Assembly (NCBI GenBank): GCA_032718475.1 | Contig: JAUCBJ010007962.1 | Location: 7,400 to 71,399, forward strand | Length of the DNA stretch: 64,000 nucleotides | Reading direction: 5' to 3' | Source of the DNA: Nemertoderma westbladi | Taxonomy: Eukaryota; Animalia; Xenacoelomorpha | Part shown: piece after piece, positions 18,547 to 60,982 of the stretch | Position numbering within the stretch: position 1 is the first letter of the stretch | How the letters are laid out: each line of letters starts with the position of its first letter | Position numbers and translations under genes: made by a program | Notes under the pieces: generated by a model | Database searches by the model: none | What the model was told of the DNA's origin: nothing | What the model saw: only the letters and a program-made list of their open reading frames with translations

Positions 18547-18620
18547 CTAACTGATTTATCCGCAGTGTAATTAGTTACGTAACGGAACACTTATTGGGAT
18601 ATATATATGTGTATACGCAG
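18547..18620 (+). promoter_or_regulatory. Candidate splice acceptors for ORF2 (CTAAC branch plus CAG at 18565; CAG at 18620)
   Basis: CTAACTGATTTATCCGCAG and TACGCAG just upstream of ATG 18627. Confidence 0.4.
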
Positions 18621-18626
18621 ATTATA

Positions 18627-21600: not shown

Positions 21601-22311
21601 TGGGCAGTAGACCCATCACACGTTGCGTATGAGCCGTATCTGCAGTCGTTACCACAATATCAAGAGCTCATCCTGACCGCTCAAGACCTTCCACAGAACA
21701 CTGGAGTCATCGTTGTTCGGGAATACTTCAGACAATTGAACATGGATAACAAATACACTTGGAACTTTGTTGCTATTTGCAACCGTATTACAAAGGGTGT
21801 ATTTTCGGAAACTAGAAAGGTGGTGCGCGCGAGAGGAGATTGGAGGATGGCGGCTATACAATACCGCAACGAGTTCCTATTGACTCACGTACCGGTGGGG
21901 TCATTGACCGCTAAGAGGATCGAGGAACAGAGAACCGCAGCGCCCACAGCGACGACTGTTGGAGCTCAAAGCTCACGGAAGGAACCAGGAGGAGAGGTCC
22001 AAGACAAGCGTCAAGTCAAGGACGACCACTACCATTCGATTATAGAAGCACAGGGAGCGTTGGAGAAGGCGCGGGTGCAACTGCAGAAGGAGGAGTTGGC
22101 GGAAGCGACCACAGGAGCACGATTGGGACGAGGCCGAGGGAGAAGTACGAGCCGGGAATCTGTCGGGGCTCAGGGAACATCGTCACCGGTTCCAGGGAGT
22201 GACGCCTCGCGGACAACATCAACAGAGTCGACTACTGGAGGAAGATTGGTGTATCTGGGAAGGGGGCGGAAGAGAGGAGCGAGCCCAAAGAACCCAGGAG
22301 CGGGTCGGTAA
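18627..22311 (+). pseudogene. Element 2 accessory ORF2 (~1200 codons originally): unknown N-terminal part, DEDDy-type 3'-5' exonuclease (~20060-20730), three CCHC knuckles (21292-21465), RG/basic tail; 19996-22311 still open
   Basis: VMFYDNE (ExoI), LPKKVREAILNQDYVKVGSGVQSD (ExoII), FVDTK, W..RP..LQYYLVLES (ExoIII-like); CKLC..H..C, CRWC..H..C, CGYCGVKGH..C; upstream parts joined by TGA read-through and frameshifts. Confidence 0.8.
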
Positions 22312-24576: not shown

Positions 24577-25959
24577 GTCCCGATTTTGATTACTTAAATA
24601 TTCTCACATTCACACATTCCGTTAGGGAATCCCAGTCTTTGCGATTAGATGCGATTAGATCAGATTAGATTAGAAAAGACATAATTGTTCACGTGTTTAG
24701 CAGTAAATTAGGCCATAGGAATACACTCAGAGTGCAAGTCTCTCGCACTCGTTTTAAGTAGCTTAGGGAACCGATTTCGGGTTTATTGTTTTGGTTATTC
24801 CCGCTTGGCTCATATATTCGAACAGTTAGCTCTCTATCGAGTAATTGGTAGAGAAAGGAACAAGAAATTAGCAGGAGCTGTATAAAATTAGTAAATATAT
24901 CAGCGGACGGCAGATTAGCGCCATCCAACGGTAAGTAGCAGCGGTTTTGGATTTAGCAACCCTACATTACAAATAATACGCTCCTGATTGCCCTGCTTAA
25001 TAAATAGAGCAATTTGTGTCTTTATTGGTTGGGTCGGGGTAGTTTGTTTAACACCAACCATTTCTAGTATTGATTCATACAGCATGTCTAATGTCCTAAG
25101 TCTAGAGAATGTAATGTAATGTAAGGTAAGTACAGTAGGCAGATGATACGGAAGCCCATAGTATCAAACAGTAGTGGAATAATCAACTACTGTATCATAT
25201 TTTCTGTCACAAAGTTCTCAATATATTACACAAAACTCACAACCAGTAGATTTTTGCGATATTTATGCGCCATGACGCTTGAAAGTCGCAAGTGAATCGC
25301 ATGTGAGTTTTATGCGACTGAACGCAAGTTGTTGCGATATCTATGCGACTTAACGCAAGTAGGTCGCTTGCGTAAAGGTCGGGCCATAACTCTTGGGAAT
25401 CACATAAGATACGCCTGCGTTGCACGCTTGCGATACGCTTGCGCACTTTCACTGGGTAGTATCCCCTCGTCTTCTCTTCCGGATGCCTCTCGGTGAAATC
25501 CACCAGTATCTCCTTTCCTCCTAACTCCGCCTTTCTCTTTCGGACAAGTTTCTCTGCCATTTCGAACTCTCCACAATCGCTCACCCGTTAGGTGGTGCCT
25601 TGCCACGGCGCGGTATGGATGAGTGATAAAGTAAAGATGGTTTATTCAGTTCGAAAATGGCCTATCTCTCGCAGAATTTCTGAGTTATTACCTAATTTTG
25701 CCACCTAATTCCTAAAACTGTCAAATTGTACCCTAAATTGAATAAATTAAAAATACGCTATTTTATTTTTAATTTAATCCTACTACTGTGCTACTACTTC
25801 TGCCAATGGATTATTCTACCTTATAATCCACATTCTGGCCTACTCTGTGGGCTTGTGCAGTACAACAGTATGCGTCGCGTGGCCTACACGATTTATCCAG
25901 CTGTACTCACGTGCCCCCCTCTCTCTACTCACTACTAACTAATATTTATATTATACATA

Positions 25960-26600
25960 CCCTTCTACCACTAACTCTTACTAACCAGTACTACGTACCC
26001 TTTCACTAACTTCTAACTAACTCTTACTAATCGGTACTACGTACCCTCTTACTAACCTCTAACTCCCACTAACTCCTACTAACCGGTACTACGTACCCTC
26101 TTACTAACCTCTAACTCCCACTAACTCCTACTAACCGGTACTACGTACCCTCTTACTAACCTCTAACTTCCACTAACTCCTACTAACCGGTACTACGTAC
26201 CCTCTTACTAACTTCTAACTCTCCCTACTAACGGTACTACGTACCCTCTTACTAACTTCTAACTCTCCCAACTGACGGTACTACGTAACCTCTTACTAAT
26301 TTCTAACTCTCCCAACTAACGGTACTACGCACCCTCTTACTAACTTCTAACTCTCCCAACTAACGGTACTACGTACCCTCTTACTAACTTCTAACTCTCC
26401 CAACTAACGGTACTACGTACCCTCTTACTAACTTCTAACTTAACTAACTAATGGTACTACGTACCCTCTTACTACTTAACTAACTAACTTCTAACTCTCC
26501 CAACTCACGGTACTATGTACCCTCTTATTAACTTCTAACGTAACTAACTAATGGTACTACGTACCCTCTTACAACTTAACTAACTAACTTCTATCTGCCT
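25960..26600. repeat. 44/52-bp minisatellite (GGTACTACGTACCCTCTTACTAAC...), copy 1
   Basis: About 12 units visible. Confidence 0.92.
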
Positions 26601-27934
26601 ACTTACTGCGTACCTATTATGTACTATTATTTTTTTTATTTTTATTTTTATGTGTGGGAAGGGCGTCTCGCCCTCAATCCCACCCCCCTCAGTCCAAAAC
26701 TTGGGCGACTAAACTCTACTCGACTAAGGTGCTCCCTCTAACAGGCAGCACTTCCCCACAGCCCTCCTGTAGGTCTTCCTATCTTTCGCCCCTATCTTGC
26801 CACCTATCCGCACTTCTACCGATCGGACTCTTCCGTCCTCATCGAGTAATTGGTAGAGAAAGGAACAAGAAATTAGCAGGAGCTGTATAAAATTAGTAAA
26901 TATATCAGCGGACGGCAGATTAGCGCCATCCAACGGTAAGTAGCAGCGGTTTTGGATTTAGCAACCCTACATTACAAATAATACGCTCCTGATTGCCCTG
27001 CTTAATAAATAGAGCAATTTGTGTCTTTATTGGTTGGGTCGGGGTAGTTTGTTTAACACCAACCATTTCTAGTATTGATTCATACAGCATGTCTAATGTC
27101 CTAAGTCTAGAGAATGTAATGTAATGTAAGGTAAGTACAGTAGGCAGATGATACGGAAGCCCATAGTATCAAACAGTAGTGGAATAATCAACTACTGTAT
27201 CATATTTTCTGTCACAAAGTTCTCAATATATTACACAAAACTCACAACCAGTAGATTTTTGCGATATTTATGTGCCATGACGCTTGAAAGTCGCAAGTGA
27301 ATCGCATGTGAGTTTTATGCGACTTAACGCAAGTAGGTCGCTTGCGTAAAGGTCGGGCCATAACTCTTGGGAATCACATAAGATACGCCTGCGTTGCACG
27401 CTTGCGATACGCTTGCGCACTTTCACTGGGTAGTATCCCCTCGTCTTCTCTTCCGGATGCCTCTCGGTGAAATCCACCAGTATCTCCTTTCCTCCTAACT
27501 CCGCCTTTCTCTTTCGGACAAGTTTCTCTGCCATTTCGAACTCTCCACAATCGCTCACCCGTTAGGTGGTGCCTTGCCAAGGCGCGGTATGGATGAGTGA
27601 TAAAGTAAAGATGGTTTATTCAGTTCGAAAATGGCCTATCTCTCGCAGAATTTCTGAGTTATTACCTAATTTTGCCACCTAATTCCTAAAACTGTCAAAT
27701 TGTACCCTAAATTGAATAAATTAAAAATACGCTATTTTATTTTTAATTTAATCCTACTACTGTGCTACTACTTCTGCCAATGGATTATTCTACCTTATAA
27801 TCCACATTCTGGCCTACTCTGTGGGCTTGTGCAGTACAACAGTATGCGTCGCGTGGCCTACACGATTTATCCAGCTGTACTCACGTGCCCCCCTCTCTCT
27901 ACTCACTACTAACTAATATTTATATTATACATAC

Positions 27935-28515
27935 CCTTCTACCACTAACTCTTACTAACCAGTACTACGTACCCTTTCACTAACTTCTAACTAACTCTTA
28001 CTAATCGGTACTACGTACCCTCTTACTAACCTCTAACTCCCACTAACTCCTACTAACCGGTACTACGTACCCTCTTACTAACCTCTAACTCCCACTAACT
28101 CCTACTAACCGGTACTACGTACCCTCTTACTAACCTCTAACTTCCACTAACTCCTACTAACCGGTACTACGTACCCTCTTACTAACTTCTAACTCTCCCT
28201 ACTAACGGTACTATGTACCCTCTTACTAACTTCTAACTCTCCCAACTGACGGTACTACGTAACCTCTTACTAATTTCTAACTCTCCCAACTAACAGTACT
28301 ACGCACCCTCTTACTAACTTCTAACTCTCCCAACTAATGGTACTACGTACCCTCTTACTAACTTCTAACTCTCTCAACTAACGGTACTACGTACCCTCTT
28401 ACTAACTTCTAACTCTCCCAACTAACGGTACTACGTACCCTCTTACTAACTTCTATCTTAACTAACTAATGGTACTACATACCCTCTTACTACTTAACTA
28501 ACTAACTTCTATCTG
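27935..28515. repeat. 44/52-bp minisatellite, copy 2
   Basis: About 11 units visible. Confidence 0.92.
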
Positions 28516-28641
28516 CCTACTTACTGCGTACCTATTATGTACTATTATTTTTTTTATTTTTATTTTTATGTGTGGGAAGGGCGTCTCGCCCTCAATCCCA
28601 CCCCCCTCAGTCCAAAACTTGGGCGACTAAACTCTACTCGA

Positions 28642-31600
28642 CTAAGGTGCTCCCTCTAACAGGCAGCACTTCCCTACAGCCCTCCTGTAGGTCTTCCTAT
28701 CTTTCGCCCCTATCTTGCCACCTATCCGCACTTCTACCGATCGGACTCTTCCGTCCTCATCGGAGTAAGTGCCCACAACTCTCGCCAACCGCCACTGGTT
28801 GTTGATGATGGTATCGTCCGTGACGATCACCAGATCACCCTCATTTAACTCCCTGTTTGTATTTCTCCACTTGCTTCTCCTATGAAGCGTGGGTAGATAT
28901 TCCTCGACCCACCTCCTCCAGTACTCCGCGCTTATCACCTTAGCGACTTTCCAACTCTGGCGGAGTGTATATTGTCTGGGTCTACACCCCGCATGTCGAT
29001 GGTCGCTGGCCTTTCCATTAGAAAGTGACTGGGCGTCAGCACATCTAACGACTCAGGGTCATTATTTTCTGGATATAGCGGTCTGCTATCAATGATACCC
29101 TCACACTTTGCTAGTACCGTCCTTAGTACGTCCTCTGTTACCATGTGGTTGTTCATCAACTTCGTCATCAGACGCTTGGAACTACCCATGAGTCTCTCGA
29201 TGCATCCTAGAGTATGCGGAGCATATGGCGTCCTCCTCTCCCACTTTACCTGTCGCCTTCTCATGGCTGCCCTGACTTCCTCCCCTTCCAGGATATCCAA
29301 GGCCTCTGCCATCTCTTCTCCGCCCCCACAAAGTTGGTCCCGTTGTCAGAACATATTACTGCGATCGTCCCACCTTTGCGGTCTCTGAACCTTTCTAGAG
29401 CATTAATGAATGCTGATACAGTTGCATCTTGGGCGAGTTCTATCCCTACCGCCCACGTATTGTTACACACGAAGATAATACCGTAGCGTTTCTCCGTGTG
29501 TCGCATCACCTTAATCTTTATTGGCCCAAACATATCCACACCGCAATGCGTAAATGGCGGGTCATGTTGTCTCACCCTACTGGCCGGCAGTGGCGCCATC
29601 TCCTGTATAGCTCGCTCCTTCTTCGTTCGTCGGCAGGTCTGGCACTGCCCCACTACCGCCTTTACCTTCTGCCTCAACTGTTTGACCCAAAAGGTCCTCC
29701 GTATCTCCGTGAGGGTCCAGTTGGTGCCCCCGTGCAATATCGACTTGTGGGAGTCCCATATAATCTGGTGGACTATCAGCGATCCATTAGGGATGATGAT
29801 GGGCTTTGGTGGGATGACACACCCTAGAGTTCATTACTAACATCCCGTCATCATTGAGTTGTGGTGACAGCGCAATCAGCTCACTGTCCCGTCAGAGATG
29901 CTGTTGTTTACTGACGCATTCCACCTCGTTGCCGTAGTTCTTTCTCTGCTCGCAGCGGATGATTGCCTTGGCCGCTCCCTCCAGATCGATGGTTGTTCGA
30001 ATTTTTATGTCTTTGCCGACTCCCTTGAGGAAATCCCCGAAGGCTCTCCAGTACGCCACTAACTTCTTGGTCTTGTACCAACTGGAGCTGTAGCTAAGGA
30101 GTTTGTCCATTGGGTTATCGCACAGTTTTTCCGATTTTGGTTGCACGTCCCTTATCTCCCTCACCATTTGTCTATATATCTCTTCACTCTCTGAATCACC
30201 TTCCTCTTCCTCTAATGCTACCTCTCCTGAGCCCGGGTCCACCTTTCTCATCGGCGGCCAGGCTGTCTTATCGCTCAGAAATTGCAGCCCATGCTGCCAT
30301 AATACTTCCTTCTTCAGGAAAGTGTGGCATGCCACGCCCCTCAATAACAAGTCCGCTGGGTTCTCGTCCATTGGGCAGTAGTGCCACCTTTCTAACTCTG
30401 TGGTCGCCCTTTTTTCGTCCATCCTGTTTGCGATGAATATAGGGTACCTTGTCCTTTCGTTATGTAGCCAACCAAGCACTACCATGGAATCCGTCCAGTA
30501 GTGTGTCTCCACTATGTTGGGAATAACGTCCATCAAGTAGGCTGTGGCCCTTACTCCTAACCTCGCTGCTGTTAACTCGAGTTTCGGAACCAATGCTGAA
30601 TTTGGTGGCGTCGACTTTGCCTTGCTGAATGCGAGTTTGGGCTTGTGAGCCCCCTCTCGTTGTACTAAGTAGAGTGCCGCTCCGTATGCCTCTAACGATG
30701 CATCGGAGAACATTTTTTATGTAGATCCAGATTCGTCATGTCCCCATCTGGGAAATACACTCGTGGCATGCTGTATGTTCCCATCTGCTCTAAACTCTCT
30801 GTCCACTTGTGCCACTGCTTGCTGATCTCTTCCGGGACCTCCGTGTCCCAATCCTCCTTCAATTTGTATACTCTCTTGAGTATCTGTTTCCCCGTGACTA
30901 GTAATGGGGATGCTAGGCCTAGGGATCATATATCCTTGCTATGTACGACACATAGCCCCTCTTTGTGTGGATGTCTGCGCCCTCCTGGCTCAACTGATAC
31001 TTCAGTTCATCTGTCTCTCAGTTCCACACGATTTCCAGTGCCTTCTGTTGAGACTCTATCCTCTTGTTCGCCATGTCCTGTCCATTGGCTGTCGTGGGGT
31101 TATCCATGGTCGATTCTGGCCTCCTATCCTCTATGGCCTTAATAAATTCCTCCGAACTGGATTGGAACTTGGTCAGGTTAAAGCCGGATCCTTTAAGGAT
31201 GTCGCGAACCTCGCGCCCTGTATCCAGTAGTTCCTTAACCGTGTTTCCAGACTCCATTCCGTCGTCTACATAGAAGCCGCGTCGAATCATATCGACGGCT
31301 TTGGCGCTGTACTTATCCTCCTTCCCCTCTACTGTGTCTCTTACGGCCCCAGTTGTCGTAAACAAAGACGACTTGGCTCCCATATTCTGTACTACCATCT
31401 TGTACATCAGTATTGTCGACGGTTCCTCGTCGCCGTTGTACCATATGAAGCGTTGGCTGTCGCTATCCCCTTCCGTTACACGGACTTGGTTGAACATGCC
31501 TTCTATGTCGCAGGTGAAGGCGTGTTTCCCATTCCTGAATCTGAGTAGGACCTCGATCCCTGAGTTGTAGATATTGGGACCCTCCAGCAGATAATCGTTT

Positions 31601-32651
31601 AGGCATTTGCCGTTGGTTTTAGCCGATGCGTCAACTACCATCCGCAGTTTACTTTTCTTCGGGTCTAGAGCCACGTGGAGTGGCAGGTAATAAGTCCTGT
31701 CCGTGTTTGGTTTGTCGACCGGTAGTTCTACGGCCCATCCTTTCTCGACGTACTTCTTAATTGTCTTGTCAATGTACTCATTCTTTTCAGGGCTCTGTTT
31801 TAGCATCTGCTTCAACTTACGAAGCCTCGTGAGTACCATTCCTCTATTGTTGGGTAGCAGTAGCTTCGGTAGCTTCCATACCATCCCTATGGTATACCGC
31901 CCCTCGTCGCATCTCATCGACTCCTTTACGCTCTGTAGAGCCTGTTTGTCTTCTCCGATGTTCCGACCCCAGTCTCCTTTAATCCCTCAAAATCCTGCCT
32001 GAGCAGTCTCCTGAGCTGCTCCTCCGCTCCCTCATCCTCAATCTCTCGCATAGTTCCCGCGAACATGCAGCCTGATGTCTCTGACATCCTAAATGGTATT
32101 TTACTCTTAATTGGGCCGCTCAGCGTCCACCCGAATGGTGTTAAAATCGCCACCGGGTCACACTGCCTGTCTTTGCCGAAGACCGTTTGCATTCTCTCGT
32201 GGGCCATCGGGCAGTCCATTCCTACTATAATGGATACCTTCCTAACGTCTACCTCTGGGATTGAGAAGTCGATACTGTCCAGGAATTTATATTGTTCGAC
32301 CTCGATGTTGGTTGGTTGCCTGGCATTGATATTTATCAACTCTATCACCTGGATGGGGTCGATGGTCGCCCCATAGTCGCATCCCAGTACTACCGCTGCT
32401 ATCGCGCACTGTCCGGTCCTCATCTCCAGGACCTTATCTTTGCTGGAGATGGTTGTTACTGCCATTCTACTTGGCCTCGTTCTCAACCCTATCTCTTCGG
32501 CCACCCAATTCTCAACTAAGGTGAAGGCTGCTCCAATGTCGACCAGCATCAATGTAGTCACTGATCGATTGCCTTCCCCAATCACTCGCACTGGTACTAC
32601 CCCAAGTAGTACCGTTCCTCTCTTCTTTGCTCCCCCTGTGCTCGTTGCCAT
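28642..32651 (-). pseudogene. pol: Element 3 pol (protease, RT, RNase H, integrase, DUF5641-like end), frameshifted
   Basis: MLVDIGA; YYLPLH, LRMVVDASAK, CDIEGMFNQV, FYVDDG; FSDAS, YWTDS, NPAD; MHGG..CQTC, GVDMFGP, SDNGTNFVGA; WRRWVEEYLPTL. Confidence 0.94.
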
Positions 32652-35600
32652 TGTCTGACCTTTACTTTGACCGAACTTAATTGGTGTTTCCTTGCATTGG
32701 TTAGCGAACAGATTTCATTTCTTCTCGCGTATTCTACCTGATCTTCCCTGGGTAGCGCTTGCCAGTACCTGCAGTTCATGGTCTGATGAAGTGCATTTGT
32801 ATGTAATTGGCATTTGCTCTTTGGGTTGTAGCCGTCCTTATACAGTTCGCTGCGTATCGCACCTACGTTTGTACCAAAGTCCCTACCATTCTTATTGTTT
32901 GGGTTCGGCCTACTGGGCGTGCTGGGGTTATGTTTATTTGTGTTGTTATTTTTCCCCTGTCCGTTCCATGATGTGGTCTTACCCCCGGCTACCTGTGGAC
33001 TAGTAGTCCCCTGCGTTGCCGTGTACGGCAGTGACTGTCTGAGCTTTGGCAATGCGTTTGACGCGTTGTGTTCTGGTTTCGGTCTCCAGGTGCCCGTATT
33101 CCCTGTCTAGTGCCCACCATGCTGTTGTGAAGCCGCCCTCGATGCCCTGGTATTGCCTCACGATATCATATGCTGGGCCTCCTGTATATACTTGCAGATA
33201 TTTTAGGCACTCCGCCTGCATCAAGTTCTTTGTTAGTATTTCATTACTATACATGCGCCAAAACTGCAGGTATTCTTCCGGCCTACTTCCATCAAATTTA
33301 AATGGTTCCACGGGTGGTAACTCGATCCTGGTTTTTAATGCATCGATCAATGTGGCCATTCCCATTGCTTGTGCTTCCAATGGGTTCGATGGATGTTGTA
33401 TAGGTTCTCCCGTCGGGTGCGGTCCATTCATCCTGTCTGCCGCTTTCCTTTGACTTGGATATATCATTGGGGGTAGCGGCCCCCTCCATATTTCGGTGTC
33501 ACACGATCTGTTCTCGTCCAAGGGGTTCGATGTTCTTACTCCTATTGGGGTATATTGTTGATATTGTGATGGGGGAATGTCACCCAGTCCCCCCCCCCCC
33601 CCCCACCGGTATGTTTGGTACTGGGGTTGATGTTAATATATTGGGGCCCATGTACCTATCCGCAATAATTCTCCCCTCCCCTGGATATATGTTATGTCCT
33701 TGCATGCTGTAGTCATACTGCTGTGCTGGTACCGGTATAGGCCTATCCACTTCTGGCCTACCTGCCGGTATGTACTCCGTGACTTCCAGGTTTAATCCCG
33801 TTGTCCGCGCTATCCTATCGCCTACATTATCTCTCCCAGTATGGCCTATGGTATGTGCAGTAAGGCCTACAGTATGTCCTGCAGTCTGTATGTGTTGCTC
33901 GGGATCGAAGTTTAATCTTCTCGAATAATCCTCCAAGCAGCTACCGTATTCTCGATCGGTAGGTAGATCCCGCCGGAAAGTTTCTCTTCGACCCCCTCTA
34001 TTGTTCTCGTCCTCGTACCGGTACATCGCGTACCCCTCTCTCGACGCGTAGTGCGCCTTGTCAGGTCGCGTTTCTCTGGGACGACGGCAATCTCCCGAAG
34101 TTCGACCCCACTGACTCTCTGTTTCCATCTCTACTACCGACGGCTCGCTATCCGTCCTCGCTCTCCGTCGCCCGCGACAACACTTTTTCTATTTTCTTCT
34201 CTTCTTCTCTCTCCAGTGCTGTATTCCCGCTCGTGAGATCTCTTGTCGACCTCCCGGTTAAACTCCACTGTTCTTCTTCCCTCTTCTGATCTGATTGTAA
34301 ATTCGAATTTAGATTTAAATTATTTGAATTATTTTGCATAATTATATTATTTGAGTTATTTTGTATGTTCAGGTTTAGACTATTATTTAAATTATTTCCT
34401 ACGTTTATATTAGAATCGTTCGGATTTAAATTACTACTGTCGGGCAAAATACTATTTCCTGCAATGAAAGTTTGGTTAGAGTTATCCACTACGGTACCAT
34501 TAATATTAACGTCCTCTACTGTATTATTATTATTACCCCCCTGCCCGTACGGTCACACCAGTCTCGGGTCTGTCGTGCGGTCCCTGTAAATGGGGTATTA
34601 ATAAATGTTTCCACAACCCTTGGCTCCTCGTAAATACTCGAGCCAGCCTCGCTCTCTGACAATCCCATCTGTGCCAGTTCCAGTCTGCGCTTCTGTTTGG
34701 CTTGATATTGCATAAGCCCCTTCAACCGGGCGTGCATATTATCCCGCACACGCTTCCCCGTTATCTCTCTCTCCAAGTCCTCCCGCGTACTCTGATCGAC
34801 TAACTCGGCCTCTCTCGCAATTCTCTCAAGTCGTCTCACCTCACATTCTCTTCGCTCATTCTCCGCCCTCACCTCGTGCTCCTTACGTTCACTCTCCGCC
34901 TCTTTCCTTTCCCTCATTCCCAATTCTTCACACTCCTTAAACTCTCTCGCGATCCTCTCAGCCCTCTCTCTGTTCTCTCTAACCAGTTCTTTCTCCTTCT
35001 CTAGTAACGCACTCCCTTCCTCTAACTGTCTCTCTAATTCTCTCTGGTCTAGCGCCGCCAGATCGAGTTGGCACACCAGATCTCTTTCTAGCACCCGTCT
35101 TTCTTTTGCGGAGGATGTAGCAGACTTATCAGTTACGACGGACTCCCTCCGCCTTCCCGTCCTACTAACTTTCCCCCGCCTCCCGGAACTTTCTCCGACC
35201 GACGAGACCGAATCCTCGGGGTTAACCTCGGATTCGCCCTCCTGCGGTCTCCTCCAACCCACTAATTTTATTCCCCGGGCATCGACTAAGTATGGCCCTA
35301 TGTACACTACACCAGGCTCCATACCCCATACATTCCCATAGTTCAAACAGTTCGCTGGCAACCCCTCTCGCTCTCTCATCGGCTAGTTCTCCCTGCCCAA
35401 AATGCACTAAGTAAGCAAAGTGTTTATTCGACTCATCTAGCCGCTTCTCTAACTTCACCTGGTCTATCTTGGCCCCTCCTTTGGCTTCTCTTAATTGCTT
35501 CCGGGTCGCGTTGTAGGCCCGTCGGAGCCAGTCGCTAACCCCGACGTCCTCGTTGCCGATGTCTCCTCTATCCCTCCGTGTCCGGCGCCATACCGGCAGC

Positions 35601-35872
35601 CCCACCGTCGCCGTTCCGGTGGGCCGTCCATCGCCCTCGGCCTGTGGCTGGCCGGCGACATCGGCACGTCGACCGCCGTCGTGTGTCGACTCATCTCTCT
35701 CCCCTCTCGACTCGTTCGCTCGTTGTAGACGGCCCTCCTCCTATTGGATTGCCGAATCGCCTATGGTCGACAGATTCGGCGTCGTGGGTCGGTACCGTCG
35801 CGTCGCGGCCTTGCGGATCGTTAGATCGCCACCCGGGGTCCGAAGCGGTGACGTTTCTCCTTCTCGACTCAT
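32652..35872 (-). pseudogene. gag: Element 3 gag, disrupted (coiled-coil, Asn-rich segment, DUF1759-like domain)
   Basis: KFDGSRPEEYLQFW; N-terminus homologous to 61669-62610; ATG at 35872. Confidence 0.85.
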
Positions 35873-35955
35873 CTTTAGTCTCTATTTCTGGTCGGTGGCA
35901 GTCAGTTAGAGTTTGGGTATTTTATCGCTTAGGGCAACTACTCGGATCTTAACAC

Positions 35956-36512
35956 TGTGACGGGATCCACCGAGGATCCCGGTTTATCCGGCTATCTTGA
36001 CTACGCGTCCCCGCCGTGTGTATGTGAAAGAAGTTCTGATTGAGCGTCTTATTGTCCTTGGTATGTATAATGATGGTAATAAAGTATAAGCACAGATTGA
36101 ATGAGTACCGGTAAGATAGTGACTAACTGAATGATGATGGTGGCAGTGGTCGAGGACGGTGTTAAGAGTTCCCGTTCTGCCCTAACTAACTGACTAACTA
36201 AAGTGAATGAAATGACACAGCAACTGGTAATATATTGCACTGGTTGGCCGTATTACATTACTCAGCGGATGCCTGCCCCCCATTGGCTAATAACTCACTT
36301 CTCGCCTCCCATCTCTCTGTGAGTGTTTTCTCCCCCACTACTGTTATTCTCTCTTGGAGGTATAACCCCTGACCCCCATTGTGTGTGTCCTTTGGGGTTT
36401 CTCATCCCCATTTATTGGGGTGATACGAGGTTGATTGGCAATCAACCTCGTGTTCCCAATATTGCTTAAAGCTAACTTTGTGGGGTGATTAGTGGAATTG
36501 AATTCGCTAACA
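35956..36512 (-). repeat. 5' LTR of element 3 (557 bp, TGTTAGCG...CCCGTCACA)
   Basis: Both ends homologous to LTR 60983-61604 (TGTAAGCG...CCCGTCACA). Confidence 0.85.
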
Positions 36513-37700
36513 TGGAGTAGGCCTATTGCATGTACTGGCAGACTGGAATACCGCATGCCGGAGTTGGTCATAGGTAGCAGTTAGCCTAGCAGCCTAGGCA
36601 ACTATTGAACTAGGTCAGTCTAATGATAATTCGACCAATCGGTGTGGCAAGGGTCGGAAATTTTTGATGAAATTTTAACCACTTATCAATTCTAGTGAAA
36701 AAACGATGTGGTGAAAATTTCAGCCGATTTGATTTTGCCGTTCTCGAAATATTGATGTTTTAAATTTGGCGAAATTCCAAAAACCAGTGAAGTACATTAT
36801 TTGAAGTGGTGTCTGTAGTTGATCTGATTATCAGTTTAATGTTAATTGTATGTGATTCTAAATAAACGATACCTGAACTTCAATATTTGTATTACTAAAT
36901 GAATAAACTATTAATCAGAAAGTTGTCAGACGATTTCAAAGTTGCCTCAAAAATGCGAATTTTTTAAAAATGTCCACATTTGAGACCTCAGTACATTAGT
37001 CTGACAACTAGTTTATCTGTTATTTTAGTTTTCCCGGTTAGAGTAACTCATAATGATTCGAATCATATAACTTTAGTAGGTAAACTGATAATCAGATAGT
37101 CTGTATGACTGAATATCTGGGTGAAGAATCTGAAAACTGTCAAAAAATGCAATATTGGAGGCTCTTCTGATATATCATACTTCTGATATCAATATTACCT
37201 CCTCTGACGTGGGCATGTTCAGGCAATAGGGCATGCTTCCAAATGGGCGTGGGCGAAGATAGTGTGGTCACCTTTATGCGCCATGGACATCCCTTCCCCT
37301 TGCATTGCTGAGGCCTAAAGGTTTAGGCAGCCATTCCCCGAAGCGTTTGGCTGTTTAAGGTAGATACACTAAAAGCTACATGTTCTGAGTTTGCAGTATA
37401 TTTTAACGTAAATGACCAAAGATTTATCGAATTAGACTAAACTTTCACAAATTAACTAATGACAAAGTTATAAAGACACAAGACAAGACAAGTCCAGTGA
37501 TAAGAGTGTTGAGTGATAACCAAAGAGCAAACGGCGCCTTATATAGGAAATCCTAAGCGTGGAATCCACTAGAACATTCTACCACATTCTATGAGCGCAC
37601 ATTGGACCAATAAATTATCAAACGTCCTACGATTGGCCCAACTAATCTGTCCATGTGTTGTACGCACTCCATTGGCTTATCTAATTTAATACAAATTTTA

Positions 37701-37770: not shown

Positions 37771-38029
37771 AAGAGAAACCTATGCCAAATTATAACTAGA
37801 GTAGGTGAAATGCAAAATATAACAAACTATAAATCAAGGCAATTGCATTGGAATTTTGAAAGTTTTTACGTAGTACTAATTACAAATATCTACCTAATAG
37901 TGAAATAATCCCACAATAATGGTGGACAAAATAATTTAAATTATAATATAAATAATCACGGTGATGCTAGTGGCGGTATATTAATATAAACATTAGCGAA
38001 GCAAACAATTCGCCTAGCGGATGCCTACA

Positions 38030-39680
38030 AGGCCATGTGGAGATGCAGCAGGAGATGCAGGCGAATGGGCCCAGGGGAGATAGGAGCAACGTGTCAAATG
38101 GAGGGGGGTGTGAAGGAAGGGGTGATAGGATGAGACGAGAGGTCACGGGTTGGGGGGGGGGGGGGGGGGGGTACGTCGGTACGGGCACCCCATCGCAACT
38201 AGTTAGTGACGGGTGGGGCTACAGGCAACCGTGTGACGAGAGGGGGGGGGGGGGGGGTGGGGAAATAAATGCCCCACAGATGTTGTTGGTGGGAAATATG
38301 CGTGGTGATTCAAGTGAACCGGGGCTCCCAACGACGGAGGAGAATAGAGGGGGGGGGGGGGGGGGGCAACAAACGCCCCACAGATGTCTGTGGGAAATGC
38401 GCGCATTGAGTCAAGTGAACCATGGCACCCGACGATGGAGGAGAGTAGAAGGGCAGAGAATATCTACGAGGCTGTACAACTGGGTAAGAGGAAAAGCATT
38501 CACGCCGAAAGTGGCCAAACGAAGGAGCACCGAACCCATTCGGGAGACGGAAGGAGAACGGTAGAGTTCATCCGGGAGGTCGATATGAGATCTCATGAAC
38601 GGAGATATAATGCTGGGAGTAGAGGACGCGAGGAGGGTGAAAGAGACGAGCGAAGAAATATTGCTACGGGCAACCAGAGATTTCGGGATAGGACGGATAG
38701 TGAACCGACTACTACTAGGATCGGCATGCTGCATTGCAGCTGCATTTTTAAGAATGCTGTGCCGGCTTGTCAACAAAATTGCACCGCCACAACTCCCTAT
38801 CACCCATGACATTTGCTAGATCATCCGCATCTTTAAGGCCAGTGTCCTTTAAGATGCGTCTCAAGAAAGTCATGGGCTGTCCACCATGCTTATTCACTCC
38901 ATGAGGCTGCCAAAGTACAAGATTATGCACTGGCTGGTCCTCACGGCGAAAGCAATGTCCTGCAAAGCGGAGGCGATTTTGTTCTAGTGTCAAGCTTGGG
39001 GGAACCAATGAGACACCTCCAATGTTATATAGTGTCTGGTTGGAGATGTGTGCATTGTACTTGACACAATGAACCCGGCGTAGCATTCTTGTGAATGTGC
39101 CATCCAGAGATTTGGTGTCCTCAGCAGTTAGAGCCCAGCATGGACTCCCGTAGAGGAGTACTGGAACTACTGCTGCTCTAAATAATCGGACCTTAAGTTT
39201 CCGATTAATTCTAGGTGACTTCCAAATCCTGGAAAGCCTATTCAAGGCTGCCCATGCCTTTCCCTTACGTATTCGACGGTTAGTCGATAGTTGAGGTAGA
39301 GAAGTAGGGCCAGTGGGGTTGTACTTCGGGAGATTGCCGTTGCCCCGGAGAAACACAACCTGGCGAAATATATCACACACCAGGAGAGGGTTACAGAGTG
39401 TACCGGGACAAGGAGGATGAGAGAAGAAGAGATCGAAGGGAAACTTCCCATCGGAACGTTGCTGCCGATCTACGATATGGTAGTCGCGGGGAGGAGTTCT
39501 CGGAATATTCGATAAGTTTAAACTTTGATCTCGAGGAGCACATTCAGACTGCAGGACATACTGTAGGTCTTACAGAACATACTATAGGCCATTCTCGGAG
39601 AGATTGTGTAGGTGATAGGGTAGCGCGAATACTGGGATTAAATCTGGAGGTCGCATCTTACATACCGGTGATTAGGCAGG
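38030..39680 (+). mobile_element. Decayed gag fragment of the element 3/4 BEL family, split by an RTE insertion
   Basis: 38550-38707 resembles 63690-63826; 39290-39670 resembles 63830-64000 and the reverse complement of 33770-34130. Confidence 0.75.
38708..39270 (-). mobile_element. 5'-truncated RTE-clade LINE with (TAG)n tail
   Basis: LKVRLFRAAVVPVLLYGS..W, RLRFAGHCFR, DRELWR; 3' UTR nearly identical to 47855-47912. Confidence 0.88.
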
Positions 39681-40089
39681 AACCAGTGATTAGAACATTT
39701 TTTCACTAACTTTTTTCGCTATCGTTTTGAGAGCAGGACTGTACGCTTACCATACCATCTTATAAATTTCAGATATGCAACACATAATTATTGTCACCTA
39801 TGTGGAGGTTCCGCGGAGGAGGCTCCGTGTAGCCTCCGCATATGCATTAATGCAAGACTCTACTTACAACTTATATATCAGAACAATAATAATAATACTG
39901 TTAGACTGTACGTTTTAAAAATGTTAATACTGTACCGGTACCGTTATATTACTTTACTACTGTCATTTGGAGTCTAATTTCTACTAACTACGGCAGATTT
40001 ACTTCATATTACAGTATTATACCAGTATACATACATACACGCCACTCTGATGACAAAAGCTGTAATTAAACTTATTGCTAACACTGAAA

Positions 40090-40865: not shown

Positions 40866-41773
40866 CGGGTAAAAATATCTAGAGTAAAAATAACGAGTGT
40901 TGAAAATTAATGTGTTTAAAAAATATCGAGAGTAAAAATAACGCGAAATGAAAAATATCGAAAATAACGAGTGTTGAAAAATATCGAGTTTTGACAAATA
41001 TCGAGATTAAAAATCGAGTGTTGAAAAATATCGAGAGTAAAAATATTGCATTTTGCTTGAGCTTTTTATTTAGAATTATGGAACAATATTTCAGTGCATG
41101 GATTACAACAGTGCAAGTGCAAGTAAATTGCATTAATACACATTAGGTACCCATTCACCAGATTTATTATACTAGCTAGTTTTTGTTATTTTTATAATAA
41201 ATATTATAGAATAAGTGCTAGCTATCAATTTTGATAAATATTTTTATTTTTATTTATAAATGTTATAGAACAGTGTAATCTACCAATGTTGATAAATATT
41301 TTTTGTTCTAGAACACATTTTTTATTTCTAGAACATTTTTAGGAAAATAATTAGCCCTTATTTAACAACCCTTATTTAAAAAAATTGTTACTATCGATAT
41401 TTTTACTCTCGATATTTAACACTCTATATTTTTTTCAACACTCGATATTTTTACTCTCTATATTTTTCAACACTCGATATTTTTACTCTCGATATTTTTC
41501 AACACTCGATATTTTTACTCTCGATATTTTTACTCTCGATATTTTTCAACACTCGGTATTTTTACTCTCGATATTTTTACCCTCGATATTTTTACTCTGG
41601 ATATTTTTTGAACTCTCGATATTTTTACTCTCGATATTTTTACTCTCGATATTTTTACTCTCGATATTTTTTGAACTCTCGACATTATCGTTATTTTTCA
41701 ACACTCGATATTTTTACTCACGTTATTTTTACTCTCGATATTTTTCATGTCAATACATTTTTCAATATAACCG
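40866..41773. mobile_element. Foldback-type MITE with arms built of 14-16-bp tandem units (AAAATATCGAGAGT / ACTCTCGATATTTT)
   Basis: Array 40870-41045 is inverted relative to array 41390-41745; AT-rich spacer; no TSD found. Confidence 0.7.
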
Positions 41774-45633: not shown

Positions 45634-48600
45634 GTGGCATTCATATATGATAATGAGGGTGTTGGCAATAAGGATACAAATCTAGGCCATCATGACCTTC
45701 AACAAACTCGAATTATAAGGGACCAAAACGATATAAAAGTCTTACAGACTATACTAACTGATGCATGGATTATACCATGGACTGTAGAAGATCCCAAATT
45801 GATCTATCTACTGGGTTGGTTTCTCCAATCGACGTTACTAAAGATCTTCTTCAAGCTAGAAGTGTTGGGGCTAAAAGTGTTATTTATAACATCCAAAGAA
45901 AGTTGTTTCCAACTTACAGAACACCATTTACATCCTGTTGAATAATAACAATGCAACCATGAGGAGGCTGGCACTCTTGTAATTCTCCATGCTCTTCATG
46001 CAGCACAAAATGGATCAAAGGTTGCATTCTGTGATGCCCCAAAATGCCAGGTTTATCATAAATGTGGATCTCTAAATATAATAACATATTGTAACATAAA
46101 CAATATATTATCTGACTTATCATTTTACATGGTAGAGGCAAACTTGTTGCTTTTAATTTAGCAAAGAACAATATTGATAAATATCTAGAGGTGCTAAGTG
46201 TTCTTGGCGAACTTTAGCAACTATCAGAATCCATATCTAGAGATTTAGAATGTTTTATATGCCAATTATATCTCAGGTGGTCAGATATTAATAACATTAA
46301 CGAGTTTTTTAGTATTTTCTTTTCATATCAAAAGTGGAGAAATTGAGTCAACCTTGCTGCCTGCCACGTTGTAAGGATTATTTATATTTACACCAATCCA
46401 GAGCCAGTCCAGAGCCAATCCAGAGCCAACTACCAAGCTTATATTTGTTATATTATAAGTTATTACGACAGCAGGCAATCATCCCAGGCATGGAAATCGA
46501 TCAACTTGCTTACTGAGAGGAAAAGCCAACCAACCACCAAGGTTAAGGCTGAATCACCAGCCGATCGACTCAATGGTTGGAAGGCCCACTTTGAAAAGCT
46601 CCTCAATAATGACAGGGTATTGCCTGATAACTTTATAGAAGTAAAAGTGTCTGAGTCTGTACTCCCAGACATTCCCATTGGCGATATCTCCTTTGCAGAA
46701 GTGAAGGCTGCTGCAAAGAGCATTAAGACCAATCGTTCCAGTGGAGTAGATGGTGTTCCCCCTGAGGTCTTTAAAATACCTGAGCGTTTAAAGCTCATCT
46801 ATCCCATCATAGTAGACATATACCAAACAACAAGAGTCCCACAAGAAATGAAAACGAAGAAGTTGGTGCCAATACCAAACAACAAGAGTCCCACAAGAAA
46901 TGAAAACGAAGAAGTTGGTGCCAGTTCCCAAGAAAGGCAACCTAACACTCTATGGTTCTTTTCGGGGAATCACATTGATCTCGATTGCTGCAAAGCTATA
47001 CAATATAATTATATTAAATCGCATCAGGGATCCCATTGAGAGACTGCTCCGTGGAAATCAGAATGGGTTCCGTAAAGGTCGTGGGACCATGGAGCATATT
47101 TTGGCACTTAGAAGGATAATTGAAGAGTTATCAAAAAAGAAAGACAGGCATCTGGCTGTTATCTTTGTTGACTTCTTTAAGGCCTTTGATTCAGTCTCCC
47201 GCTCACGTATGTTCAGCATACTTTCATTATATGGGATTCCTGATGAAATTATTGCAGCAATCAGATCAGTATACGATGATGGTTCGACAACATTTGTGTC
47301 TACTGTTGATGGTGACACAGAACCATTTGAAGTGTTATGGGGCGTCCTCCAGGGAGACACACTTGCACCATTCTTGTTCATAATTGTGGTTGACTATGTT
47401 CTACGCATGTTCTACGCATGATGATGGGGAATTAAGAATCGAGAATTAATCGGAAACTTAAGGTCTGATCATTTATAGCAGCAGTAGTTCCAGTACTCCT
47501 CTATGGGAGTCCATGCTGGGCTCTAACTGCTGAGGACACCAAATCTCTGGATGGCACATTCAAAAGAATGCTACGCCGGGTTCATTGTGTCAATTACAAT
47601 GCACACATCTCCAACCGGTCACTATATAACATTGGAGGTGTCTCATTGGTTCCCTCAAGCTTGACACTAGCTTCGCCGTGAGGACCAGCCAGTGCGTAAT
47701 CTTGTACTTTGGCAGCCTCATTGACTGTATAAGCATGGTGGACAGCCCATGACTTTCTTGAGACGCATCTTAAAGGACTTGAAGATGCGGATGATCTAGC
47801 AAATGTCATGGGTGATAGGGAGTTGTGGCGGCGCAATTTTCTCGACAAGCTGGCACAGCATTCTTAAAAATGCAGCTGCAATGCAGCATGCCGATCATAG
47901 TAGTAGTAGTAGTGGAAAAAGTGTAGTACCCATCGTCAATGTTCCTTCTCGCATAGGTCTGGGATGGCTGTTTTGGAAAAGGAGGATATGGTAATACCTG
48001 ACTGCATGCATGTTCTACCAGCTCCATCATCAATTCTCTCTCTATATATCTATGCTGTATTGCAATTGTACTGTACTATTGCAAATAACAAACTTCATTG
48101 CACGGAGTTCTGCAAATTCAAGTATTCACCAACTGGAAGGAGGCAGATTTGGAATGAACTGAAGCACTTGACCCCTCATATGAAGAAGATGCTATTCCTA
48201 ATACAGCTATAATTGTATCACATACATTACCTACTCGATTAAGTATACTCTATTTCCTCGTATGACATCATACCAGCTATGAATACATACATACCTTATT
48301 ATGTATTATTTTATTATTATTAAATGAAGAGGATTTAATATTCAAAAATGTAATTATTGAGGGAATCATCTTTGCAGAAATTATCTAGGAATAATCATGA
48401 TAAACAGATACATTAAAGTTAATACTAAACGAGTGTCAAGTTATATATTTGACATTATGTATCTGAGTCATCTTCAATTGCATCTGTAGTGGTGTTCATG
48501 GTAACCTGTGGAGGAGTGTTGTCTGAAATGCCAATTAGATTTCACTTGTCATCTTAAAGTAATTGTAGTTACATCACGATTGTTTTTTATTGACATAAAT

Positions 48601-49932: not shown

Positions 49933-52900
49933 CTAGAAAGGCATTTCCTAAAGGAAATGCAACCACGAAGCTAAGGAAAATTAAACACACTTTGACTCAT
50001 CAGTTCATTGGTACTAGTTAAAAGTCATATGTCTTAATACAACTCCCATCACCATGGCAACTGGAGTTTTCTAGAACTGCTCGGTTTTACATGAGGATCC
50101 AGTTTGTAGTTCCGTGACACAAATTGACTTCAAGGAAGTTTCATTGAGTAGTTGATGTCCAAAATTAAGGATGTATTTGTTAAAACATCAGTTTGCAGTG
50201 GTTGTCTTGGAAACTGATAAATATTAAAACGTTAATTGGATGCAGAATAAGTGATATAGTGGGGGTAGCGGTTGGTCCCAAGTCGTAATATCTTAATGTT
50301 ATGGCTTAAGTAATTATTTTATAAAGTTGAACATCTGTTTAACCTGGTTGCCTGTTAACTGAATTTTTTAATTGACCTCAATAAGCGCAACTATTGTCCT
50401 TATAATTGAGTTGAAAAACTTCAAGTTTCGATCTATTATTATTAATTGAGTTGAAAAACTTCAAGTTTCGATCTATTATGGTTGTTGTACAAATAGAGTT
50501 AAAAATATAGACTTTAATGTAATAGAAATGATTTTAATAAACTCCAGTTACCAGGGTAACTAGATATTTCTAGAAGTTTTGAGTTTTTCAAAAAGTTCCA
50601 AATAGGAGTCCAGATAACACATACCCAGTTTCAGAGAATGTTATCGTTTAGTCTATCTACAAAATTAACAATTTTTGTGTCAAAACATATGTTTTCAGCG
50701 GTTGCCATGGAAACTGAAAAATAGAACAACGTAATTCGGATGCAGAATAAGTTATATAGAGGGGGTAGGGATTGGTCCCATGTCATAATACCTTTAACTT
50801 TTGCTAAAAATTATCATTTTATAAATTTGAACATCTGTTTAGCCTGGTTGCCATGGTATAGTTTATATCTAAGTTTATATCTATTACGGTTTTTCTACAA
50901 ATGGAGTTATGAATATAGACTTGAATGATATAATCTGTAATAAACTCCAGTTACCACGGTAACTAGATATTTCAGGAATGTTTTGAGTTCCACTAAAAGT
51001 TCCAACTAGTTGTCCAGATAACACATACCCAGTTTTGTAAAATTTTATCGCGAAGTCTATGTCCAAATGAGTTATTTTTGTATAGAAACATCTGTTTTCA
51101 GCGGTTGTCATGGTAACTGCAAAACAGAACAATGAAATTTGGACGCAGAATAAGTTATATTGTAGGGGTAGGGATTGGTTCCAAGTCATAACACCTTCTC
51201 CTTAGGCTGCAAATTAACATTTTATAAATTTTAACATCTGTTTATCCCGGTTGCCAAGGTAACTGGATTTTCAATTTAAACTCAATCGGCTCTGCTATGG
51301 ACCTTATAATTGAGTTGAGAAACCCCAAGTTTATATCTATTGTAGTTTTCTTACAAATAGAGTTATAAATATTGATTGATTTTTCCTGGATATGAGACCC
51401 AGCACAAAAGATGCTCCTCGACGAGTAGTATATACATGCAAAATTTCAGGGTGCTTTTAAAGGCTAGTTTTATCCCCGGTCAAAAAAAACTAATCTGCCC
51501 CATACAAGTAAAAGGGCCCACTATGAATAGACCATCTCAGCTAAGGAAAATATTTCTTAGCGGAAGTAGTTCATTTTCCTTAGCTTCGTGGATTTTTACG
51601 AGAAAGGCATTTCCTAAAGGAAATGCAACCACGAAGCTAAGGAAAATTAAACAAACGGCCACACTTTGGTTCGTTGCTTAGCCTCGTTTAGTAGCATTTG
51701 TCAATAAATTAACTTCTATTCCCATGGAAACTAGAGTTCTCTGGAACTGTTGCTTTAACCTTTGAAAAAAAAATCAGTACAGATTGTGGTTCAGATAACA
51801 CATATACTGAGTTTCAGAAAATATTGTAGTTTATGTCCAAATTACCGATTTTCTATCAAAATGCATCTGTTTGCAGTGGTTGTCATGGAAACTGAAAAAT
51901 AGAACAAGGTAATTCGGATGCAGAATAAGTCATATAGTGGGGGTAGGGGTTAGTCCCAAGTCATAATACTATTAACTTGTACTTCAAATTATCATTTTAT
52001 AAATTTTAACATCTGTTCAGACTTGTTGCTATGGTAACTGTATTTTCTAATTAGCCTCAAACGGCTTGGATATGGATCTTATAGATGAGTTGCAAAACCC
52101 CAAGTTTATATATATTACAGTTTTGCTACAAATAGAGTTATCAATATAGACTTGAGAATGATATAGAGTTTAATAAACTACAGTTACCATGGTAACTAAA
52201 TTTCTGGAATAATTTAAGTTTCACTAAAAGTTCCAACTAGTGGTCCAGATAACACATACCCAGTTTTGTAAAATTTTATCGCGAAGTCTATGTCCAAATG
52301 AATAATTTTTGTATAAAAACATCTGTTTTCTGCGGTTGTCATGGTAACTGAAAAATAGAACAATGTAATTCGGATGCAGAATAAGTTATATAGTGGGGGT
52401 AAGGGTTGGTCCCAAGTCATAACACCTTGCCCTTAGGCCTCAAATTTACATTTTATAAATTTTAACATCTGTTTATCCCGGTTGCCAAGGTAACTGGATT
52501 TTCTATTTAGCCTCAATCGGATCTGCTATGGACCTTATAGTTGTGTTGCGAATCCCCAAGTTTATATCTATTATAGTTTTCCTACAAATAGAGTTATAAA
52601 TATTGACTTGAAATACATAGACTTTTTTTGAAGTCCGTTGCCATGGAAACCAGATTTTTCCTGGATATGAGACCCGGCCCAAAAGATGCGCCTCGCCGAG
52701 TAGTATATACATGAAAAATTTCAGGGTACTTTTAAAGGCTAGTTTTTTCCCCGGTCAAAAAAAACCAAATCTGCTCCATACAATTAAAATAGCCCACTAT
52801 GAATAGACCATCTCAGCTAAGGAAAATCGTTCTTAGCGAAAGTAGTTGATTTTCCTTAGCTTCGTGGATTAATGTGAGAAAAGAATCACTTTGCAGGATT

Positions 52901-58900: not shown

Positions 58901-60543
58901 TGGAAACCAGATTTTTCCTGGATATGAGACCCGGCCCAAAAGATGCGCCTCGTCGAGTAGTATATACATGCAAAATTTCAGGGTACTTTTAAAGGCTAGT
59001 TTTTTCACCTATCAAAAAAAACCAAATCTGCCTCACACAAGTAAAATAGCCCACTATGAATAGACCATCTCAGCTAAGGAAAATCTTTCTTAGCGAAAGT
59101 AGTTGATTTTCCTTAGCTTCGTGGATTAAAACTTTAATTGGATGCAGAATAAGGGATACTAGAAAGGCATTTCCTAAAGGAAATGCAACCACGAAGCTAA
59201 GGAAATTTAAACACACTTTGACTCATCAGTTCATTGCTTCTAGTTAAAAGTCATATATCTTAATTCAACTCCCATCACCATGGAAACTGGAGTTTGCTAG
59301 AACTGCTAAGTTTTACATTAAGATAAAGTTTGTGGTTCCAGGTGACACAAATCGACTTCAAGGAAGTTTCATTGAGTAGTTGATGTCCAAAATTAAGGAT
59401 GTATTTGTTAAAACATCAGTTTGCAGTGGTTGTCTTGGAAACTGATAAATATAAAAACGTTAATTGGATGCAGAATAAGTGATATAGTGGGGGTAGGGGT
59501 TGGGCCCAAATCGTAATATCTTAATGATATGGCTTAAGTAATTATTTTATAAATTTGAACATCTGTTTAGCCTGGTTGCCTGGTAAATGAATTTTCTAAT
59601 TGACCTCAATAAGCACAACTATTGTCCTTGTAATTGAGTTGAAAAACTTCAAGTTTCGATCTATTATGGTTGTTGTACAAATAGAGTTAATAATATAGAC
59701 TTTAATGTAATATATTTTGATAAACTCCAGTTACCATGGTAACTAGATATTTCTAGAAGTTTTGAGATTTTCAAAAAGTTCCAAATAGGAGTCCAGATAC
59801 CACATACACAGTTTCAGAGAATGTTATCGTTTAGTCTATCTAAATGAACAATTTTTGTGTCAAAACATCTGTTTTCAGTGGTTGCCATGGAAACTGAAAA
59901 ATAGAACAACGTAATTCGGATGCAGAATAAGTTATATAGAGGGGGTAGGTATTGGTCCCATGTCATAATACCTTTAACTTTTGCTTAAAATTGTCATTTT
60001 ATAAATATGAACATCTGTTTAGCCTGGTTGCCAGGTAACATGATTTTTTAATTTACCTCAATCTGCTCACCTATGGCCCTTACAGTTGAGTTGAGAAACC
60101 CCAAGTTTATATCTATTGCGGTTTTTCTACAAATAGAGTTATGAATATAGACTTGAATGATATAATCTGTAATAAACTCCAGTTACCACGGTAACTAGAT
60201 ATTTCTGGAATGTTTTGAGTTTACTAAAAGTTCCAACTAGTGGTCCGGATAACACATACCCAGTTTCGTAAAATTTTATCGCGAAGTCTATGTCCAAATG
60301 AGTATTTTTTGTATAAAAACATAAGTTTTCAGCGGTTGCCATGGTAACTGCAAATTAGAACAATGAAATTTGGACGCAGAATAAGTTATATAGTGGGGGT
60401 AGTGGTTGGTCCCAAGTCATAACGCCTTGTCCTTATTCTTCAAATTAACATTTTATAAATTTTAACATCTGTTTATCCCGGTTGCCAAGGTAACAGGATT
60501 TTCTATTCAACCTCAATCGGCTCTGTTATGGACCTTATAGTTG
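49933..60543 (-). mobile_element. Nest of about 9 non-autonomous Helitron copies (full copies 1.2-1.7 kb, with ~450-bp internal subrepeats)
   Basis: On the minus strand copies start TCCACGAAGCTAAGGAAAAT and end with hairpin GCATTTCC-TTTA-GGAAATGC plus CTAG; inserted between A and T without TSD; copies 49933-51592, 51599-52868, 52902 (split), 53145-54420, 54473-57005, 54589-55857, 57054-58288, 58289-59125 (partial), 59159-60543. Confidence 0.85.
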
Positions 60544-60982
60544 TGTAAGCGGATTCAATTCCACTTCATTACCCACCAGAAAATGGGACCAGTGGCATTT
60601 AGCAATACGTTGGGGATATGGTTATTCCCACGTGGCTCATAGATTCGAACAGTTAGCTCTCTATCGAGCGATCGGTAGAGAAAGGAACAAGCGATTTGCA
60701 GGAGCCATATAAATTAGTAAAATATATTAGCGGACGGCAGGTTAGCGCCATCCAACGGTAAGTAGCGGTTTTGTGTTTAGCAGTTGCGCAGTATAATAAT
60801 AGCGCGCTCCTGATCGCCCCTGTTTAACAGGTAGCAATAACATACCCAGGAGGGGCGGCCTGGAAAGCCAACCCCGAGAAAAGAACTCCACCCCACCCCG
60901 ATAGTAGATTGGGTTCCAGCGGAATTGAAGCGCACTTGAGGTTGATGCTATCTTCTCACTGGGAAGATAGCATGGGGGGGAG

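Follow-up and report, generated by a model that had tools for sequence, protein, structure and literature searches.

The window analysed here comprises 64,000 nt of Nemertoderma westbladi DNA (assembly GCA_032718475.1, contig JAUCBJ010007962.1, positions 7,400–71,399, forward strand) and holds three junctions between a 5′ LTR and its leader that can be tested. They belong to copy A, a minus-strand BEL/Pao element listed as element 3 in the initial annotation; to copy B, its diverged plus-strand relative at ~61.6 kb; and to element 1, a separate plus-strand BEL-type element with paired LTRs at window positions 1–12389. The 5′ LTR of a further element, element 2, lies outside the window. Copy A comprises the following features:

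28641–35872, minus strand: decayed gag-pol with stops and frameshifts, covering Gag (DUF1759), protease, reverse transcriptase (RT), RNase H (Peptidase_A17) and integrase (H2C2, DUF5641)
35936–35929, 35909–35900 and 35879–35873, minus strand: leader segments that pair with upstream LTR segments
35947–35955, minus strand: PBS position, the 9 nt right after the LTR, without TGG; exact complement of 36167–36159
35956–36512, minus strand: 5′ LTR, 557 bp, TGT...ACA, with a depth drop at both ends and contigs coming loose at 35956
35961–35981, minus strand: U5 hairpin adjoining the LTR end, perfect, 8 bp with a 5-nt loop, −15.6 kcal/mol
36159–36167, minus strand: anti-PBS, the LTR segment complementary to the PBS position and predicted 3′ end of a self-primer
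36178–36185, 36186–36195 and 36197–36203, minus strand: further LTR segments with colinear pairing to the leader, in copy A only
36200–36206, minus strand: Inr-like site 30 nt past the TATA-like box, predicted start at 36204; three other Inr-like sites lie within 13 nt
36227–36234, minus strand: TATA-like box of the predicted promoter, from a consensus scan; placed relative to the Inr and the anti-PBS end as in copy B

Judged from its proteins, copy A is a decayed BEL/Pao retrotransposon of an animal genome. Its domain matches include DUF1759 (5.5e-6), Asp_protease_2 (5e-5), Peptidase_A17 (6e-14), Integrase_H2C2 (2e-11) and DUF5641 (7e-15), together with a weak match to RVT_1 (0.023), and its RT carries FYVDD. 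This RT has 22 database matches at 29–37% identity, 20 of which also contain Peptidase_A17 or DUF1759. The elements share with canonical Belpaoviridae a DUF1759 Gag, the order PR-RT-RH-IN, Peptidase_A17, DUF5641, TG...CA LTRs and a purine tract. With lengths of 557, 622 and 1240 bp and purine tracts before 60983 and 11150, their LTRs agree with the BEL/Pao description (0.2–1.2 kb, TG...CA, purine tract). The ICTV profile of BEL/Pao, which calls replication in the family poorly understood, describes an 18-nt PBS for the 3′ end of a host tRNA (PMC8742986). In contrast, such a PBS is absent here, so that the elements, BEL/Pao by their proteins, depart in this feature from the family description.

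Because the window contains no 3′ LTR of copy A, the end of its 5′ LTR was checked against copy B and against public contigs of the same species overlaid on copy A (sets X1, X2, X3 and X5; X1 and X3 represent one sample). The LTRs of copies A and B are 91% alike over their first 22 nt and identical over their last 12 nt. Summed contig depth, which is not a copy number, drops at 36512 and again just beyond 35956. At least five contigs from X5 come loose exactly before 35956, and more do so before 35954 (at least eight from X1, at least eight from X2 and at least three from X5), the 19 listed leaving the reference after the first two letters of the PBS position. The boundary at 35956 is clear, and the LTR end given in the initial annotation is upheld by both the contigs and copy B. 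We rejected an LTR end at the TGG in the loop of the U5 hairpin, since copy B has no such TGG and 35956 is where the contigs break. The hairpin itself is as perfect as first described, and its listed family variants (indels and one substitution at 35969–35973, among the best-supported) all fall in the loop. An Rfam search of 35700–36600 returned one weak match only (mir-3145, E 0.22), which indicates that LTR A does not encode a tRNA-like primer. Near the 5′ end of the same LTR, an inverted repeat at 36413–36461 shows the highest contig depth of the entire LTR.

No TGG follows the LTR of copy A, either in the first 30 nt or anywhere up to the gag ATG. Instead, the PBS position forms an exact 9-bp duplex with the anti-PBS (35955–35947/36167–36159) with zero spacer, and two further exact duplexes extend it colinearly, one of 8 bp (35936–35929/36185–36178) and one of 10 bp (35909–35900/36195–36186). 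The lack of a TGG site and the three duplexes had been proposed from first inspection; we additionally identified a fourth colinear piece of 7 bp (35879–35873/36203–36197), located just before the gag ATG. The 9-bp core is short; of 5000 dinucleotide-shuffled LTR sequences, 26 gave a 9-nt match at zero offset, and chance was measured in this way for each LTR. The 46-nt LTR segment as a whole pairs with the leader at −42.9 kcal/mol, compared with −21.0 ± 3.4 kcal/mol for shuffled sequences, and its value was reached by none of 1000 shuffles. Among 970 start points in the downstream sequence, only 3 in copy A and 1 in copy B match as well as offset zero, and the other two in copy A belong to its extended duplex.

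Copy B carries the same arrangement in different letters:

60983–61604, plus strand: LTR, 622 bp, preceded by a purine tract and ending in the same 12 bases as that of copy A
61413–61422, plus strand: anti-PBS, 10 nt, inside a local 7-bp hairpin
61605–61614, plus strand: PBS position, exact complement of 61413–61422, with at least four changes from that of copy A

The gag downstream of this LTR is 72% identical to that of copy A over 941 nt. In a letter-by-letter comparison, which concerns these two related copies, the PBS positions have the first two letters in common; beyond these, one indel and three substitutions separate them, or five substitutions in an ungapped alignment. The 10-nt match of copy B was reached in 4 of 5000 shuffles. 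From the TATA-like box to the end of the anti-PBS the distance is 75 nt in copy A and 73 nt in copy B, from there to the LTR end it is 203 and 182 nt, respectively, and a U5 hairpin lies beside the site in both. Between their two ends the LTRs align weakly, and MAFFT does not place the two anti-PBS segments in the same columns; it is therefore spacing, together with a global pairwise alignment, that supports their equivalence. On this basis, copies A and B keep the self-match through different letters at an equivalent place in the LTR. When LTR A and LTR B are each compared with the other two elements' leaders, only 3–5 nt match. Upstream of copy B, the 75-nt head of its LTR recurs 439 nt before the full LTR (60544–60982, plus strand) and is cut off by a repeat found also at 24792–25000 and 26841–27005; together with the purine tract before the full LTR, this head suggests a tandem arrangement.

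Element 1 provides a third junction, defined by two LTRs:

1–1062, plus strand: 5′ LTR, cut by the window start, its end set by divergence from the 99.2% identical 3′ LTR
321–331, plus strand: anti-PBS, 11 nt, present again at 11648–11658 in the 3′ LTR
1063–1073, plus strand: PBS position, exact complement of 321–331, nearly palindromic
11150–12389, plus strand: 3′ LTR, 1240 bp, after a purine tract

The identity between these LTRs extends over 1062 nt and ends exactly after 1062 and 12389. Shuffling the 5′ LTR part reached the 11-nt match 5 times in 5000, shuffling the 3′ LTR 7 times in 5000, and the sequence following the 3′ LTR, used as a negative control, gives a self-match of only 4 nt. 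The LTR shows no similarity to that of copy A, and the Gag is of the BEL type by a DUF1759 match below the curated cut-off. Since the site is nearly palindromic, the match is also a near direct repeat, which weakens the case made by this element. We found no TATA box in it, and its PBS position lies in a weak local hairpin. Most of pol has been lost, and extra coding-like sequence is present at ~9600–11070. The gag of element 2 seems to have received element 1 as an insertion. Element 2 is a BEL/Pao element in which two long extra ORFs of 300 and 780 aa (18555–19454 and 19969–22308, plus strand) follow the integrase and precede a probable 3′ LTR that begins near 22834. Of these ORFs, the 780-aa one contains CCHC-like knuckles and gave no significant match in Pfam or PDB sequence searches; its N-terminal part looks like a DEDDy 3′–5′ exonuclease.

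A zero-spacer self-match is thus found at all three testable junctions, over 9 nt in copy A, 10 nt in copy B and 11 nt in element 1. Pairing ends precisely at the LTR boundary in each of the three elements, and none of their leaders has a TGG in its first 30 nt. As a control, we examined a complete BEL element with 206-bp LTRs and a 5-bp target duplication, one of two loci (L007 and the 2.8-kb L008) retained from 17 candidate stretches in a scan of genome contigs. In the L007 element a TGG is located 5 nt after the LTR and the self-match covers only 5 nt, so the test separates this ordinary element from copies A and B and element 1. The control element (L007 7456–13650) lies in AT-rich DNA of a 2.57-Mb contig assigned to a bacterial MAG. 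Given that this DNA carries an intact BEL/Pao element whose TGG site is ordinary, the contig probably derives from an animal. No relative emerged from protein scans of viral contigs; scans for the LTR-end pattern gave one match in viral and five in metagenome contigs, all in prokaryote-type DNA and all judged to be chance. ARAGORN found no tRNA genes within the 64-kb window.

Across the family, the LTR end is common and the PBS position is not. The X1 depth is 33242 at 35952–35961 vs 1139 at 35942–35951, a fall due in part to solo and 3′ LTRs, and family contigs give 9800–17400 in the bins at the start of gag. A PBS set by a tRNA would be the most conserved part of an element. At least two X2 contigs match copy A precisely to where the 9-nt site ends, then depart from it until close to the start of gag. 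The fourth PBS letter is T in copy A and A in copy B as well as in all four groups of loose ends at 35953–35954, and the partner position 36162 carries the matching letter in 62% (X1), 82% (X2) and 72% (X3) of the depth. This concordance is unlinked, coming from different contigs, and agreement within three of the four loose-end groups is only 0.48–0.57. For the third letter, at which three of the four groups depart from copy A, the best-supported 40 of 54 variants include no partner change. The contigs are short, and among those listed none covers both the PBS and the anti-PBS.

The long colinear extension, which the initial annotation had treated as part of the primer fold, proved significant in copy A and at chance level elsewhere: shuffles extended the core duplex as well in 0 of 2000 cases for copy A, 1062 of 2000 for copy B and 1229 of 2000 for element 1. 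Likewise, the segment after the anti-PBS pairs well with U5 in copy A (8 + 2 bp) and poorly in copy B. In equilibrium folding from the predicted start, the core duplex of copy A reaches a pair probability of 0.95–1.0, falling to 0.13–0.16 for an RNA beginning at the anti-PBS. In copy B and element 1, where local hairpins compete, it is 0 with the predicted start and only 0.11–0.21 for an RNA beginning at the anti-PBS. The anti-PBS of both copies also lies within a CGG...CCG stem (61404–61426, plus strand, and 36155–36175, minus strand), strong in B and weak in A, which could present or hide it.

These properties point to self-priming, in which the RNA of the BEL/Pao elements A, B and 1 would itself serve as the primer of reverse transcription, much as in Tf1. 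We assign this reading a probability of about 0.7: the feature is real, and self-priming is its likely function, as far as can be judged from sequence. Transcription would start ~30 nt after the TATA-like box, at 36204 in copy A and 61380 in copy B, so that the anti-PBS would end the first 44–46 nt of the RNA. The 5′ part of the RNA would then fold onto the PBS position, probably aided by a nucleocapsid chaperone activity of Gag. A cut immediately behind the paired segment would follow, made, if Tf1 is a guide, by the element's own RNase H. The freed 3′ end could prime minus-strand DNA through U5. Self-priming as first proposed for copy A is the best-supported reading in view of the three junctions and the different letters in A and B, with one correction: the primer, put at ~37 nt, is nearer 44–46 nt if the TATA/Inr spacing common to A and B marks the start.

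Comparison with known systems places the elements close to Tf1 in function and apart from it in ancestry. In Tf1, the RNA's first 11 bases pair with the PBS and are cut off by RNase H as a self-primer, according to excerpts of PMC7175516, so that its duplex of 11 bp compares with 9–11 bp here. Tf1/sushi elements have been described as self-priming, and the same has been predicted of Tcn1 and of the copia elements of the TAR lineage (excerpts of PMC6317226, PMC4600332 and bioRxiv 2022.12.06.519325); the comparison also drew on parts of PMC3601003, PMC13524379, PMC5443660, PMC3286476 and PMC8220671. As in Tf1 and Tf2 of Schizosaccharomyces pombe, Tj1 and the Tf1/sushi chromoviruses of Ty3/gypsy, the PBS is complementary to the element's own LTR or RNA 5′ part rather than to a tRNA, and a stem in U5 adjoins the site (title of Lin and Levin 1998; excerpts of PMC4600332). 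Unlike those elements, A, B and 1 have BEL/Pao and not Ty3/gypsy chromovirus proteins, and would thus work alike without being members. Furthermore, whereas the excerpted description makes the Tf1 primer the first 11 nt of the RNA, the paired segment in A and B is predicted ~35 nt inside the transcript, with a primer of ~45 nt. The three-duplex 'pretzel' of Tf1, as outlined in part of bioRxiv 2022.12.06.519325, has no clear counterpart here: in copy A it is upstream sequence that pairs with the leader, and of the flanking pairings the U5 hairpin occurs in A and B, the others being strong in A only. For the TAR lineage (Houba and Osr-1, plant Ty1/copia) and the Tcn1 clade, which belong to other superfamilies and hosts, self-priming is likewise predicted from sequence alone in the excerpts of PMC6317226. 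The rule quoted there calls for a match of at least 10 nt starting 0–5 nt after the 5′ LTR; copy B and element 1 have 10 and 11 nt, and copy A, with 9 nt, is one short.

An alternative that we consider unlikely is priming by a host small RNA, for example a tRNA half cut in the anticodon arm, with the LTR match having a structural or regulatory role and masking the site up to the arrival of the primer. The anti-PBS segments of A and B may loosely resemble, with mismatches, anticodon loops of valine and isoleucine tRNAs, and the self-duplex is not the favoured fold in copy B or element 1. Half-tRNA priming exists in Ty1/copia lineages (excerpts of PMC6317226 and PMC10886601), but among plant elements the excerpted part of PMC6317226 places such sites in Ty1/copia only. 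The site differs among A, B and many family contigs after its first two letters, so that several tRNAs would be needed, each matched anew by the LTR.

Complementarity between the LTR and the PBS position, present in both LTRs of element 1, would equally be needed if the 3′ end of the transcript acted as the primer. R would then span only ~45 nt and the RNA would end at the anti-PBS in the 3′ LTR, with neither poly(A) nor a cut. However, the ICTV profile describes the RNA as polyadenylated (PMC8742986), and there is no AATAAA or ATTAAA near the anti-PBS of A, B or element 1, the only such signals lying at 36416 in A and 95 nt before the LTR end in element 1, with none in B; we regard 3′-end priming as improbable. 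A structure for dimerisation, packaging or translation control, unrelated to priming, would suit the copy A duplex, which reaches the gag start codon, and the nearly palindromic site of element 1. It is nevertheless very unlikely, leaving unexplained why three of three duplexes start at the first base past the LTR and stop at the LTR end, and what primes these elements without a TGG. Despite the shortness of the matches, the decay of the copies and the choice of copy A for looking good, chance is scarcely credible given matches at all three junctions (each p ~0.001–0.005), equivalent positions in A and B, and controls of 3–5 nt. A primer assembled across a splice junction was considered separately and rejected: the three matches are contiguous, so it is not needed, and a narrow scan of short segments around the anti-PBS found no GT(A/G)AG donor.

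Self-priming, if true of these elements, would extend the mechanism to a third LTR superfamily after Ty3/gypsy and Ty1/copia. It would also account for LTR elements of animals that carry the annotation 'no PBS', and hosts that direct tRNA fragments against a fixed PBS would lose this target; an exact primer end is predicted for each family. A broader proposal, to which we give even odds, is that whole lineages of BEL/Pao (here two, with LTRs lacking similarity) have abandoned tRNA priming and use instead a capped stretch of their own RNA, ~45 nt long and cut at an internal site, leaving the PBS free to drift between subfamilies. This would have arisen independently of Tf1/sushi and TAR, with an architecture unlike that of Tf1. 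The literature searched, which left most subscription papers, GyDB and Repbase outside its scope, yielded no report of self-priming in BEL/Pao. The C. elegans element Cer7 is said to have been proposed to encode its own tRNA-like primer, a proposal that the literature search did not find. None of the primer terms looked for occurs in PMC3118150 or PMC554778.

Downstream of the integrase of copy A lie tandem repeats, a 2-kb duplication and further insertions. The duplication, at 24836–28771, is a 94.5% tandem copy of the integrase end and 3′ region, and it contains arrays of a 44-nt repeat together with the start of another ORF. Non-LTR retrotransposon RT fragments are located at 38751–39569 (minus strand) and 46347–47418 (plus strand), the former interrupting a third gag fragment of the family of copy A at ~38000–39700. 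Finally, a satellite-like array with units of ~380–500 nt and a minisatellite of 15–17 nt occupy 50066–60500 and 41400–41760.
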